Positions 2,954-38,362 of a DNA stretch of 43,639 nucleotides are shown here, piece by piece. The stretch comes from a virus. Lineage: Duplodnaviria > Heunggongvirae > Uroviricota > Caudoviricetes. The notes below the pieces were generated by a model. The model did not search any database and had not been told where the DNA came from. It was given only the letters and a program-made list of their open reading frames with translations. Location of the stretch: the IMG/VR virus record IMGVR_UViG_2617270952_000006; one strand, given 5' to 3'. Numbering within the stretch: position 1 is the first letter of the stretch; each line of letters opens with the position of its first letter. Both the position numbers and the translations under genes were made by a program.

Positions 2954-3028
2954 GTCCTCTTAGTTAAATGGATATAACGAGCCCCTCCTAAGGGCTAATT
3001 GCAGGTTCGATTCCTGCAGGGGACACCA
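2954..3028 (+). tRNA. argW: tRNA-Arg (anticodon CCU)
   Basis: 75-nt sequence gtcctcttagttaaatggatataacgagcccctcctaagggctaattgcaggttcgattcctgcaggggacacca with anticodon loop ctCCTaa and 3' terminal CCA-like end; known integration site for Sf6/CUS-3/KplE1-type prophages. Confidence 0.9.
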
Positions 3029-8011: not shown

Positions 8012-8073
8012 GTTGGTTTTTCTCCACGGATTTACTGACAACCGAAGCCCTGACTGTTCCCGCAGTTGGGGCT

Positions 8074-8256
8074 TCACTGTTTTATGTTCACATCTAACAT
8101 TGTTTTTCTAGAATTTAACTCTTTCCCCATCGCTTCAACGCAAAGAGATACACAACTACTACAGATAAATATCTCTGCTTTAGCGCGAATCAACATTGCA
8201 CATTCATGCTGAGGCTTTCCGCAGAAGGAGCACTTAAAGCCATCTTCTTTATTCAT
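8074..8256 (-). CDS. 60-aa protein with ClpX-type C4 zinc-ribbon (ZBD-like) motif
   Basis: [43 protein letters not shown].. parallels the ClpX N-terminal zinc-binding domain (CSFCGK.QHE..LI......IC..CV.LC); start ATG overlaps arc stop (ATGA); preceded by GGGGGTGG RBS. Confidence 0.6.
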
Positions 8257-33525: not shown

Positions 33526-34469
33526 GCAATCCCCCTGTCTGCAAACTTCCCTTCCCGAACTCCCGTTAACGAGTCTTCCCTCAGCAGGTAATCAAAATCT
33601 GCCGTCCAGCCCGTGTCGTTGTCTCCGAAGTAAAACGGCTTGGCCTGATGCACAAACGCCCTGACATACGCTCTGAAACCGTCCACGTTTGGCGTTTTCA
33701 GTTGCGGAATGATTTTCTTCAGGCGGCGTTTGCGTTTCTCGTTGACCGCAACAGCGTGTGGCAGTCTGTCACCGACTTCGGTGTTGTAGGCGTTCAGGAA
33801 GGATTCGTAGTCGATTCGTTCTGCCTTGCGACGTTCAGGTTTAACCTGCCCATCGCCTCCCCCATTGGGGGGTAGGGGGGTATTATTTATATTCTTGTTA
33901 ATACCTTCTTGTTCATGATGTGCGGTTGTTTGTGCGGCTTCATGTGCGCTTTCATGTGCGGCATGTGCGCTGAAAGCCGCGCCATTACTGGCTTCTCCAT
34001 GTGCGGCATCATGTGCGGTTGTTTGTGCGGCTTCATGTGCGGGTAAATTGTCCATTTTTTGAGCATATTCATGGTAATTTGTGATGGTTATCACACGACC
34101 TTTTTGCTTCTCTCCATCAATGGAGATCATCCCCTCTTTCACAAAAACCTGAAGCATCCGCTCAACCTGATCACGGCTTGCTGGCTTGCCATGTCTGTCG
34201 CATAACTGAAGACCTAAATCAGCTGCTGTCACAACCAGTTGACCGGGTTGCAGATGCCATTCATGACCTTTGAAATTCGCTTTGTATGGCTTTCTGGCGG
34301 CATTCAGGAGAAGGTTTTCCCACAGGGTGCGAAGATAAACATCTTTCGCCCATGACTGTTTCAGAATGCTCCGGTACAACGGAATGTAACCAGTTTTCTG
34401 GTTCTCCATCCTGTTGCTCCTGCGCTCGTGTGCGGCGCTGAAATCGTAGATTTTTGCTGTATTGCTCAT
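33522..34469 (-). CDS. Replication initiator (lambda O / P22 gp18-like) containing the origin iterons
   Basis: 315-aa product upstream of helicase; internal His/Ala-rich repeat encoded by DNA iterons; N-terminal region O-like. Confidence 0.75.
33880..34045. repeat. Replication origin-like iteron array within the initiator gene, with adjacent A+T-rich tract
   Basis: Direct repeats: ~35-bp unit tcatgatgtgcggttgtttgtgcggcttcatgtgcg (33913-33948) repeated at 34007-34041, plus shorter catgtgcgg copies between; A+T-rich 33880-33905. Confidence 0.6.
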
Positions 34470-36291: not shown

Positions 36292-36320
36292 TTGACTCGA
36301 TAAAGTACAAATCGTACTAT
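36292..36320 (+). promoter_or_regulatory. pL promoter with overlapping operator (OL)
   Basis: -35 TTGACT (36292-36297), 17-nt spacer, -10 TACTAT (36315-36320); 19-bp motif AAAGTACAAATCGTACTAT (36302-36320) shared with OR. Confidence 0.5.
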
Positions 36321-36359: not shown

Positions 36360-36390
36360 TGCTCTTAAAAATTAAGCCCTGAAGAAGGGC
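36360..36390 (+). promoter_or_regulatory. nutL site (boxA plus boxB hairpin)
   Basis: tgctcttaaaaattaa followed by gccctgaagaagggc, matching lambda nutL boxA/boxB. Confidence 0.7.
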
Positions 36391-36562: not shown

Positions 36563-36889
36563 ATGGATGCACAAACACGCCGCCGCGAACGTCGCGCAGA
36601 GAAACAGGCTCAATGGAAAGCAGCAAATCCCCTGTTGGTTGGGGTAAGCGCAAAACCAGTTAACCGCCCTATTCTCTCGCTGAATCGCAAACCGAAATCA
36701 CGAGTAGAAAGCGCACTGAATCCGATAGACCTTACAGTGCTGGCTGAATACCACGAACAGATTGAAAGCAACCTGCAACGTATTGAGCGCAAGAATCAGC
36801 GCACATGGTACAGCAAGCCACGCAGTGAAATGGGTGTAACTTGTGTTGGTCGCCAGAAAATGAAATTAGGCAGTAAACCACTTATTTGA
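36563..36889 (+). CDS. N: Antiterminator N (lambda-type)
   Basis: Product MDAQTRRRERRAEKQAQWKAANPLLVGVSAKPVNRPILSLNRKPKSRVESALNPIDLTVLAEYHEQIESNLQRIERKNQRTWYSKP.. recognised as lambda N with arginine-rich motif; AGGAG RBS. Confidence 0.85.
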   Translation: MDAQTRRRERRAEKQAQWKAANPLLVGVSAKPVNRPILSLNRKPKSRVESALNPIDLTVLAEYHEQIESNLQRIERKNQRTWYSKPRSEMGVTCVGRQKMKLGSKPLI

Positions 36890-36897
36890 GGTGAGAT

Positions 36898-37221
36898 ATG
36901 GAAGCATTAGTAGTAGAGCGAAGCGAGGATGGCTACTGGACGCACCCAGAATACGCCAACCTGTTTGGGGATAGAGAGGTAATTTCAGCTGATGAGTTCA
37001 GATCTTTCTGCAAGCAGCATGGCATTGAATCATCAATTGTTGAAATGGAAAACGACAACAATCAAACGGTAATTGACGCGTATTTTGAAGATGGGAATCA
37101 AAACATCAGTGGATGGGAGCCAAGCATGCCAGATGGAGAAGGATGGTTTGTCGGTTCGATTCACGATACAGAAGACGGTCCGATCTGCGTTTGGTTCAGG
37201 AATGTAGATAAGGCCGAATAG
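36898..37221 (+). CDS. Acidic 107-aa hypothetical protein immediately downstream of N
   Basis: Strongly D/E-rich product; GGTGAG RBS; stop codon sits in the loop of a terminator hairpin. Confidence 0.6.
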   Translation: MEALVVERSEDGYWTHPEYANLFGDREVISADEFRSFCKQHGIESSIVEMENDNNQTVIDAYFEDGNQNISGWEPSMPDGEGWFVGSIHDTEDGPICVWFRNVDKAE

Positions 37222-37236
37222 TCGGCCTTTATTTTT
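37212..37236 (+). terminator. Rho-independent terminator (tL1-like)
   Basis: Hairpin ggccga-atag-tcggcc followed by tttattttt. Confidence 0.55.
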
Positions 37237-37355
37237 GGCATAAACAACAGAATAAACACTGCACTGTGTATTCATTCCAACGAGTGAATACACGGAGCAA
37301 TGTCGCTCGTAACTAAACAGGAGCCGACTTGTTCTGATTATTGGAAATCTTCTTT

Positions 37356-37381
37356 GCCCTCCAATGTGAGGGCATTTTTTT
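37356..37381 (+). terminator. Second rho-independent terminator upstream of the 322-aa gene
   Basis: Hairpin gccctc-caatgt-gagggc followed by 8-nt T-run. Confidence 0.55.
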
Positions 37382-37393
37382 GATGGAGGATAT

Positions 37394-38362
37394 ATGAGTG
37401 AAGTAACAGATTTAGTTGTTATTGAAAAAGCAAATGCAATGACTGTATTTCAGTCTGCCGACCAGATTGAAGAAATCCTTCAAAAGGTTGAACGTGAAGT
37501 TATGTCCTTTGTGCCTGATATCACAACGGCAAAGGGCAGAAAGGAGATCGCTTCTCTGGCGTATAAAGTTGCGCAGACGAAAACATATCTCGATGGTCTT
37601 GGCAAAGACCTTGTTGCTGAACTGAAGGAAATTCCAAAGCTAATTGATGCTAACCGCAAGACAGTGCGTGATCGCCTTGATGAGCTGAAAGCCAAGGCGC
37701 GCCAGCCTCTTACTGATTATGAGGAAGAACAGGCGCGGATTAAAGCCGAAGAAGAAGCTAAGGCAGCAGCTGAAGCTCTCGCAAAGCAAATTGAGTCTGA
37801 CCATGAAATAGCTATTTTGATGGATCGCGAATTTGACCGCCAAAGAGAAGAGGCAAGACTCAAAGCGGAGCAGGAAAAGCGAGAGCATGAAGAACGATTA
37901 AAAAGAGAAGCTGAAGAGAAAGCCAGAGCAGAAGCCGAAGCAAAGGCAAAAGCCGAAATTGAAGCAGCAGCAAGGCGAGAAGCAGAAGCTAAGGCCGCAG
38001 CGGAACGTGCAGAGCGTGAACGCATTGAAGCCGAGCAACGAGCACAGCGCGAAGCAAAAGAGGCAGCAGAACGAGCTGAAAGAGAAAAGCAGGCAGCAAT
38101 TGAAGCAGAACGCAGAAAAGCACAGGAGGAGGCTGAACGAATCCGTCGCGAGGCTGAAGCAAAAGAGCAAGCCAGAATAGCAGAAGAAAAAAGAATCAAG
38201 GACGAAGAAGAGCGTAGAGCAAAGGATAAAGCTCACCGGAAAGAAGTAAATAACAAAATACTTGCTGACCTTATCAAGGTTGGCGCATCAGAAGATGTTG
38301 CTAAAAATATCATAACAGCCATCGTAAAAGGCGAAGTATTCGCAACAAAAATAACCTACTAA
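37394..38362 (+). CDS. Hypothetical 322-aa protein with N-terminal globular region and long E/A/K/R-rich coiled-coil-like low-complexity region
   Basis: Central ~150 aa are almost purely E/A/K/R (..EAEEKARAEAEAKAKAEIEAAARREAEAKAAAERAERE..), resembling TolA domain II-type helices; GGAGGA RBS. Confidence 0.65.
   Translation: MSEVTDLVVIEKANAMTVFQSADQIEEILQKVEREVMSFVPDITTAKGRKEIASLAYKVAQTKTYLDGLGKDLVAELKEIPKLIDANRKTVRDRLDELKAKARQPLTDYEEEQARIKAEEEAKAAAEALAKQIESDHEIAILMDREFDRQREEARLKAEQEKREHEERLKREAEEKARAEAEAKAKAEIEAAARREAEAKAAAERAERERIEAEQRAQREAKEAAERAEREKQAAIEAERRKAQEEAERIRREAEAKEQARIAEEKRIKDEEERRAKDKAHRKEVNNKILADLIKVGASEDVAKNIITAIVKGEVFATKITY

Follow-up and report, generated by a model that had tools for sequence, protein, structure and literature searches.

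The DNA considered here is a stretch of 43,639 nucleotides from a virus of the Caudoviricetes (IMG/VR record IMGVR_UViG_2617270952_000006), which we refer to at its full length as the window, and the subject of this report is a small, strongly acidic open reading frame (ORF) that directly follows the antiterminator gene N. This acidic ORF is the window's copy of orf184, an accessory gene of the hypervariable slot between N and ral/sieB of lambdoid phages. The gene had already been catalogued: a near-identical copy had been singled out among the variable accessory genes beside ral and is known as a trigger of abortive infection, and the sole property that has been demonstrated for orf184 is the triggering of gop-β-cII abortive infection by the allele of phage mEp213. 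With respect to function, we tentatively favor, while retaining considerable doubt, the interpretation that the gene encodes an immediate-early effector that binds stoichiometrically to a nucleic-acid-binding protein of the host or of a mobile element.

Identity with orf184 and membership in the PHROG 1372 family

The acidic ORF and gene gp45 of mEp213 share 98.8% DNA identity and 97% protein identity and are of the same length. Gene gp45 (AFM76385.1; YP_007112388.1; JQ182733.1, 30588..30265) is listed as UDP0184/orf184 in Supplementary File 3 of Silas et al. (bioRxiv 10.1101/2023.04.06.535777), where the curator note reads '??? – checked but nothing meaningful found' and the entry records 'many' hits in the non-redundant (NR) database and no transmembrane segment. 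The same study reported that expression of orf184 alone makes the gop-β-cII locus toxic in ECOR59, where this locus is part of a P4-like satellite. Suppressor transposons were recovered in beta and gop according to the study, which also reconstituted the effect in a laboratory strain. It also placed orf184 and ral in the same accessory region, labelled 'RalSupEx', and found that Ocr and ArdA trigger death via systems linked to restriction-modification (R-M), whereas orf184 does so via a different one (10.1101/2023.04.06.535777). The gop-β-cII locus is itself an anti-phage system that is effective against λ and P1 (PMC9122126).

The window and mEp213 copies are alike in lying in the same accessory region of the pL operon, with the same spacer and the same 322-residue gene downstream. 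They differ in that the window ORF abuts a lambda-type N, whereas in mEp213 an N-like gene of the HK620 type and a 74-residue ORF precede the gene, and in three to four substitutions (V28A, S36Y, Q68P, E107A); trigger activity has been reported for the mEp213 allele only. The mEp213 locus (L001 1953-3710) has two annotated N-type antiterminators in a single pL operon, one of the lambda/HK244 type and one of the HK620 type, with three small ORFs between them and the acidic gene after the second.

A more distant homologue, rac22 (43% identity), is found in the prophage Rac-SA53 (L002 3492-6519), where it lies approximately 1 kb away, across an IS1 insertion, from genes for a cII-like protein and a Beta_protein (PF14350, E=2e-52); no gop ORF is present. 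A relative of the gop-β-cII trigger and a gop-less β-cII module thus stand side by side in one prophage.

The only match of the acidic ORF was to PHROG 1372 ('unknown function'; E=1.2e-43, residues 1-106). No relative was found in Pfam, NCBIfam or PADLOC, and a search of Pfam at E<=1 returned nothing except a chance match to DUF2303, with no Lar_restr_allev match and no similarity to Ral. Likewise, single-sequence and profile queries of PDB sequences gave no match, the PADLOC-DB models matched neither the acidic ORF nor its plasmid homologue, and the only matches among BFVD structures were to uncharacterized members of the same family. Searches of the literature by family accessions and by 'phrog_1372' produced no match, and a search for 'mEp213' produced nothing relevant. 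An initial annotation of this DNA, made from the sequence alone, had reported no recognizable motif in the ORF, in agreement with the empty searches of Pfam, NCBIfam, PADLOC and PDB sequences. It had also named homology to a characterized family outside anti-defense as grounds for abandoning its proposal of an anti-defense role; we looked for such homology and found none.

Full-length similarity and the presence of both invariant family motifs in the alignment, V.R..DG.WTHP.Y and W.P..P.G.GWF..SIHDTEDGP.C.W.R, support the assignment of the acidic ORF to the orf184/PHROG 1372 family. An exhaustive hidden Markov model (HMM) search recovered 1,007 representatives of this family at 50% identity. 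Twenty columns are invariant over 24 aligned sequences with identity down to 42%, and the acidic ORF has all 20 of them. Because of these invariant columns and the number of cluster representatives, we judge the acidic ORF, on family-wide conservation, to be a real gene.

The protein contains 24 aspartate or glutamate residues (22.4%) and six lysine or arginine residues, which give it a net charge of −18 and an isoelectric point (pI) of 4.11, and among the 76 methionine-initiated ORFs of at least 80 residues in the six frames of the window it has the most negative net charge per residue. The description of the first ORF after N as strongly acidic, also made in the initial annotation, thus holds. 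Acidity is a trait of the family as a whole: 175 domain segments have an average net charge of −14 and a pI of 4.29, 12 positions are aspartate or glutamate in at least 60% of sequences, and lysine and arginine are nearly absent except at R8 and R101. Near-invariant positions include H16, H89, D90 and C97, together with four conserved tryptophans.

Members of the family were found in 84 annotated phage records (Escherichia, Burkholderia, Pseudomonas, Vibrio, Erwinia, Klebsiella and Yersinia), in more than 540 viral contigs, in 41 of 5,426 complete E. coli genomes, and in 2,443 plasmid records, 2,130 of them conjugative and the majority from Klebsiella. The family therefore occurs across phages and conjugative plasmids of Proteobacteria. 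It is this spread that gives the gene its weight, with approximately 1,000 clusters at 50% identity distributed over lambdoid, P1-like, N15-like, Burkholderia, Pseudomonas and Vibrio phages and mostly conjugative Klebsiella plasmids.

The distribution on Klebsiella plasmids prompted a comparison with AcrIE10 (PMC11317147), a small anti-defense protein common on Klebsiella IncF-type plasmids, which carry the homologue of the acidic ORF too. Identity with AcrIE10 was ruled out, since that protein has a solved structure, an all-helical dimer composed of a ribbon-helix-helix (RHH) domain and a helix bundle, whereas the acidic ORF is predicted to have an α/β fold and has no sequence or fold match in the PDB.

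Separately, approximately 430 plasmid records (hits H120-H125) match only the C-terminal 26-32 residues of the family, at approximately 62% identity, and the DNA in which they lie is unannotated. They could be what is left of truncated copies, or they could belong to some other protein with the GWF..SIHDTEDGP hairpin.

The slot after N and the predicted timing of expression

The acidic ORF begins 8 nt after the lambda-type N gene and is followed directly by a conserved spacer (Table 1) that 329 phage records, lambda included, carry with at least 90% identity. The lambda counterpart of this spacer extends from just past the ral stop codon (34087) to the start of ea10 (33904). Since the ORF lies directly 5' of the spacer that follows the ral stop codon in lambda, it is a positional replacement of ral. 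The order of genes in this slot is N–sieB–orf28–ral–spacer in lambda and N–ral–hypothetical gene–spacer in CUS-3. In the alignment, homology with lambda starts in the descending arm of the terminator 1 hairpin, and this arm and the U-run that follows it are common to lambda, CUS-3 and mEp213. The ascending arm comes in each case from the resident gene of the slot, whose stop codon occupies the loop; this codon is TGA in lambda and TAG in both CUS-3 and the window. The hairpin of the window (37210-37229) reads AAGGCCGA-AUAG-UCGGCCUU, is followed by UAUUUUU and has a ΔG of −13 kcal/mol. Among close relatives, the ORF mostly abuts N directly, or an N allele that shares only the last 81 nt, and additional genes are sometimes inserted past the hairpin. 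Elsewhere, the family is found in early accessory blocks, namely the nin-like region of Rac-SA53, a Lar–exonuclease–methylase operon in PY54, and the ead/Ea22 block of the P1-like phage D6.

Lambda Ral and Rac Lar are thus the known proteins to which the acidic ORF is closest in position: they share the slot directly 5' of the spacer and the stop codon placed inside a hairpin that precedes a U-run, and Lar domains are fused to some members of the orf184 family. Lambda Ral differs in having no sequence similarity to the acidic ORF and in its distance from N, which is approximately 750 bp, whereas the acidic ORF precedes the first terminator. In lambda, the terminator tL1 lies in the interval between N and ral, and ral is therefore N-dependent.

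This difference bears directly on timing. The initial annotation had stated that the stop codon lies within the loop of a terminator hairpin and that a second terminator follows, and both statements are correct, with the TAG in the AUAG loop and terminator 2 starting at position 37355. Its further claim that expression would be N-dependent does not survive, since both terminators lie 3' of the ORF and a scan of the + strand from pL/nutL to the stop codon of the ORF found no terminator-like site. In this part of the window as a whole, six terminator-like sites were found, compared with 1.5 expected from shuffled sequences. The promoter scan also found no promoter belonging to the ORF itself. 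Since the two terminators are downstream, they gate later genes and not the acidic ORF. Given this arrangement, the 8-nt gap after N and the ORF's own strong ribosome-binding site, we expect the acidic ORF and N to share the immediate-early pL transcript, and expression of the ORF would then not depend on N; on this prediction only two proteins are made before antitermination, and the acidic protein is one of the pair. The position of the stop codon suggests a further possibility: a ribosome that terminates at this TAG would sit over the 5' arm of the hairpin and make terminator 1 less effective, and translation of the ORF would thereby be coupled to read-through into the delayed-early genes, with terminator 2 serving as a backstop.

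The genomic slot also raises the question of whether the gene could be a prophage exclusion or defense gene, like sieB or rex of the same region, and not a counter-defense gene at all. The slot holds sieB in lambda, the published label 'RalSupEx' names the region (10.1101/2023.04.06.535777), and the gene is common in prophages, as its occurrence in complete E. coli genomes indicates. We nevertheless regard an exclusion function as very unlikely, since the pL operon past N is repressed in a lysogen and no separate promoter was found in the scan, and since the protein has no match in PADLOC, no transmembrane segment and no reported protective phenotype.

A second candidate role arose from the abutment of an acidic protein on the very basic N, namely that of a specific partner or chaperone of N. 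This was ruled out, as the family is common in elements that lack N (PY54, D6, Burkholderia phages and tra operons).

Predicted structure, genetic associations and candidate targets

We modeled the acidic ORF with AlphaFold2 and obtained an α/β domain (predicted local distance difference test score, pLDDT, of 87; predicted template modeling score, pTM, of 0.79). The published AlphaFold model of ORF184 (pLDDT of approximately 95-98) was then analyzed by means of its Cα, Cβ and charge-center atoms. This model is compact, with dimensions of 41×32×22 Å and a radius of gyration (Rg) of 13.8 Å. Conserved residues W14, H16, W73, P75, I88, P95, C97, W99 and R101 are buried and define the fold, and the tip of the conserved H89-D90-T91-E92-D93 hairpin is exposed. 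Salt bridges connect R26 with E33, R101 with E44, and K105 with E2. With the exception of the buried R8, basic residues are confined to one half of the model, and the other lobe (residues 10-11, 49-65 and 90-93) bears acidic side chains only. The acidic ORF is thus predicted to encode a compact α/β domain whose surface is both strongly and persistently acidic.

A surface of this kind invites comparison with Ocr (T7 gp0.3) and ArdA, and the protein could be a DNA mimic that uses its acidic surface to imitate the DNA backbone and thereby block type I (or type II/III) restriction enzymes. Like those proteins it is small, has a pI of approximately 4, is predicted to be expressed very early, and is carried by phages and conjugative plasmids. 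T7 Ocr is likewise expressed immediate-early. The retention of acidity throughout the family, the occupation of the ral slot, the fusions to Lar, and the Lar and methylase neighbors described below all favor this explanation. The initial annotation had proposed to check it by predicting the structure and looking for DNA-mimic features. For an architecture like that of Ocr or ArdA, the outcome was negative: those proteins are elongated helical dimers, whereas the model is a compact monomer with evenly spread charge and no carboxylate stripe or helical array. Its 23 carboxylates are directed all ways, with a mean resultant length of 0.148 compared with 0.19 for random directions, and we found no sequence or fold similarity of the acidic ORF to Ocr, ArdA or any solved DNA mimic. 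The separate death system that orf184 sets off also distinguishes it from both proteins. The modeled surface would be compatible with a smaller charge-based decoy.

Further evidence on this point comes from a companion pooled screen of 196 genes in 20 wild E. coli strains with eight phages, in which counter-defense phenotypes were obtained for Ocr, Ral, ArdA, six new genes and Ip2 (PMC12373910). Ocr, Ral and ArdA scored in that screen, whereas orf184 is not among the reported hits (PMC12373910), and this argues against a DNA mimic and sets orf184 apart from Ral. Since orf184 was not among the hits, any anti-defense role that it has lies outside what the screen sampled. Taking both sides together, we consider a DNA mimic of the Ocr/ArdA type improbable.

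To describe the genetic associations of the family, we surveyed 60 longer homologues for fused domains and 142 genes within ±2 positions of the homologue at 47 diverse loci. Lar is the fusion partner in three of the longer homologues, in both domain orders, and an Rv2179c-like exonuclease in two. Single fusions involve a Tad2-like domain, a DHHA1 domain (DHH/DHHA1 phosphoesterase), KTSC and other domains; there is one tandem duplication, and most of the partner domains in the scanned fusion proteins are without annotation. The neighbors include seven orphan DNA methylases, two Lar genes, two exonucleases and DndB, as well as integrases and TraU, and those at viral loci include N, Gam, RecT/Erf/Rad52, RdgC, SSB, Kil and cIII. 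In PY54, the homologue lies between two exonuclease genes. The replacement of ral, the Lar fusions, and the Lar and methylase neighbors bear out the link drawn in the initial annotation between the post-N slot and counter-defense. These associations are circumstantial and fit a role in DNA-level conflict, perhaps the inhibition of a nuclease.

Among these longer homologues, a partner domain with 17 members (P0042, P0063, P0083, P0084, P0095, P0128 and others) occurs on either side of the acidic domain. It has the motif ...ER.RQ..EGW...HDD....GELA.AAA.Y...W.W...WKP...RR.LVKAGALILAEIERLDR and no Pfam match, and it presumably resembles MazG-like all-helical phage proteins.

On IncF plasmids, one of them pKpQIL-like, the genes are arranged in the order PIN7 – hypothetical – DUF2726 (restriction endonuclease-like) – homologue – PLD nuclease – repA, with the homologue overlapping the DUF2726 gene by 4 bp. 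This string is placed after finO/traX and before repA; its full form is seen at one locus (L088 161-3123), and a second (L090 4336-5943) shows the part from DUF2726 through PLD. A third plasmid (L091 4276-5953) keeps the homologue–PLD pair, and its overlapping gene has no Pfam match. The plasmid PLD protein resembles DrmC of PADLOC. On another IncF plasmid, the homologue lies between traW and traU.

These contexts suggest that the protein might be a dedicated nuclease inhibitor or immunity partner that neutralizes a nuclease of the PD-(D/E)xK or PLD type, encoded by the element itself or by the host. The DUF2726–homologue–PLD order with its 4-bp overlap, which two of the three inspected plasmid contexts show, speaks for such a pairing, as do the number of plasmid records that carry the family and the exonuclease fusions and neighbors, including the two genes that flank the PY54 copy. 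Phage copies, the window's among them, are by contrast without an adjacent DUF2726 or PLD gene, and the IncF copy between traW and traU has no nuclease nearby. The cII-like protein of the β-cII module, for which a link to the plasmid DUF2726 protein was considered and dropped, has no similarity to DUF2726. We therefore regard a dedicated nuclease inhibitor as unlikely, with a weight comparable to that of the DNA mimic, which is itself a weaker sub-hypothesis than the effector that we favor.

Two of the single fusions, to the Tad2-like and DHH/DHHA1 domains, together with the near-invariant H16, H89, D90 and C97 and the four conserved tryptophans, could be taken to indicate a sponge or enzyme for a small molecule such as an immune signaling nucleotide. 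The conserved residues belong mostly to the buried core, however, and no pocket is visible; the fold searches matched neither Tad1, Tad2 or Acb2 nor any enzyme; a strongly acidic surface is poorly suited to anionic nucleotides; and every such fusion was found once only. Of the explanations considered here, a small-molecule function seems to us the most remote.

We return to the effector that we tentatively favor. The protein would act stoichiometrically as a protein-binding inhibitor and would use its polyanionic surface, together with the conserved H-D-T-E-D hairpin that is exposed, to bind a basic nucleic-acid-binding surface on a protein of the host or of a resident element. The target would most likely be a nuclease-type defense or DNA-processing factor, rather than a type I restriction system of the EcoKI type, and gop-β-cII would sense either the acidic protein itself or a consequence of the inhibition. 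A more specific version, in which the orf184 family is a new broad-host-range anti-defense or anti-nuclease inhibitor of a conserved nuclease-type immunity or DNA-processing factor that the published screens did not sample, with gop-β-cII as a guard that detects the inhibitor, is possible, though we hold it to be rather doubtful.

Several observations weigh against the favored interpretation. No binding partner is known for orf184, its status as a trigger is not proof of an inhibitor function, and it is absent from both the counter-defense hits and the weaker candidates listed for the companion screen (PMC12373910). Neighborhoods and fusions of the kind described above are typical of early phage operons generally. 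The plasmid copies lie in or after the tra operon and not in the leading region, where entry-phase anti-defense genes usually sit. Finally, sequence alone leaves room for Rho-dependent termination, or for processing of the RNA, in the interval from N to the ORF. The partner of orf184, once identified, would explain what gop-β-cII senses and might reveal a new counter-defense mechanism. In the version with gop-β-cII as the guard, the inhibitor would be one that phages carry and that approximately 2,400 sequenced conjugative plasmids carry too, among them Klebsiella resistance plasmids of the pKpQIL type.

Features of the surrounding DNA

The features of the window that surround the acidic ORF are collected in Table 1. 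The nutL site agrees with the lambda nutL consensus.

Table 1. Coordinates of the acidic ORF and of the features around it in the window.
Feature	Coordinates	Strand	Details
pL-like sigma-70 promoter	36292..36320	+	TTGACT–17 nt–TACTAT; consensus scan; 5' of nutL and N
nutL	36360..36390	+	boxA TGCTCTTA (36360-36367) and boxB GCCCTGAAGAAGGGC (36376-36390); read from sequence
Lambda-type antiterminator N (MDAQTRRRERR...)	36563..36889	+	Pfam N36, E=1.6e-26; PHROG 271
Shine-Dalgarno sequence of the acidic ORF	36888..36894	+	GAGGTGA; read from sequence; overlaps TGA of N (36887-9)
Acidic ORF (orf184/PHROG 1372 family)	36898..37221	+	ATG 36898; TAG 37219-37221; 107 residues
Intrinsic terminator 1	37210..37237	+	8-bp stem; 4-nt AUAG loop holding the TAG stop codon; then U-run
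Conserved spacer	37222..37393	+	172 bp; equivalent to lambda 33912-34083, between ral and ea10
Perfect 14-bp hairpin within the spacer	37264..37295	+	ΔG −18.8 kcal/mol; z −7.1; invariant in four aligned phages
Intrinsic terminator 2	37355..37381	+	7-bp GC-rich stem (hairpin 37355-37374) and U7; ΔG −12.3 kcal/mol
Next pL-operon gene, Sf6 gp33-like	37394..38362	+	322 residues, E/K/A-rich; PHROG 1376/21365 (unknown function); gated by both terminators

The spacer is near-invariant and folds strongly (z of −6.05 in a 191-nt context). It contains a possible ORF of 27 residues, from an ATG at 37301 to a TGA at 37384, the end of which overlaps terminator 2. A search of Rfam with the intergenic spacer returned only a sub-threshold RyhB-like match (20 bits, compared with a gathering score of 55), which we took to be due to chance. 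The spacer could be a processed RNA element, a small RNA (sRNA) or a recombination linker.

The 322-residue protein encoded after the spacer has a long central segment rich in E, K, A and R, and it is annotated as 'TolA' in some phages. The window also contains a tRNA gene (2954-3025) and a sar antisense RNA (8012-8078; Rfam RF00262, 87.7 bits). The latter points to an immI region of the P22 type, and the window is therefore a P22-like/lambdoid mosaic.
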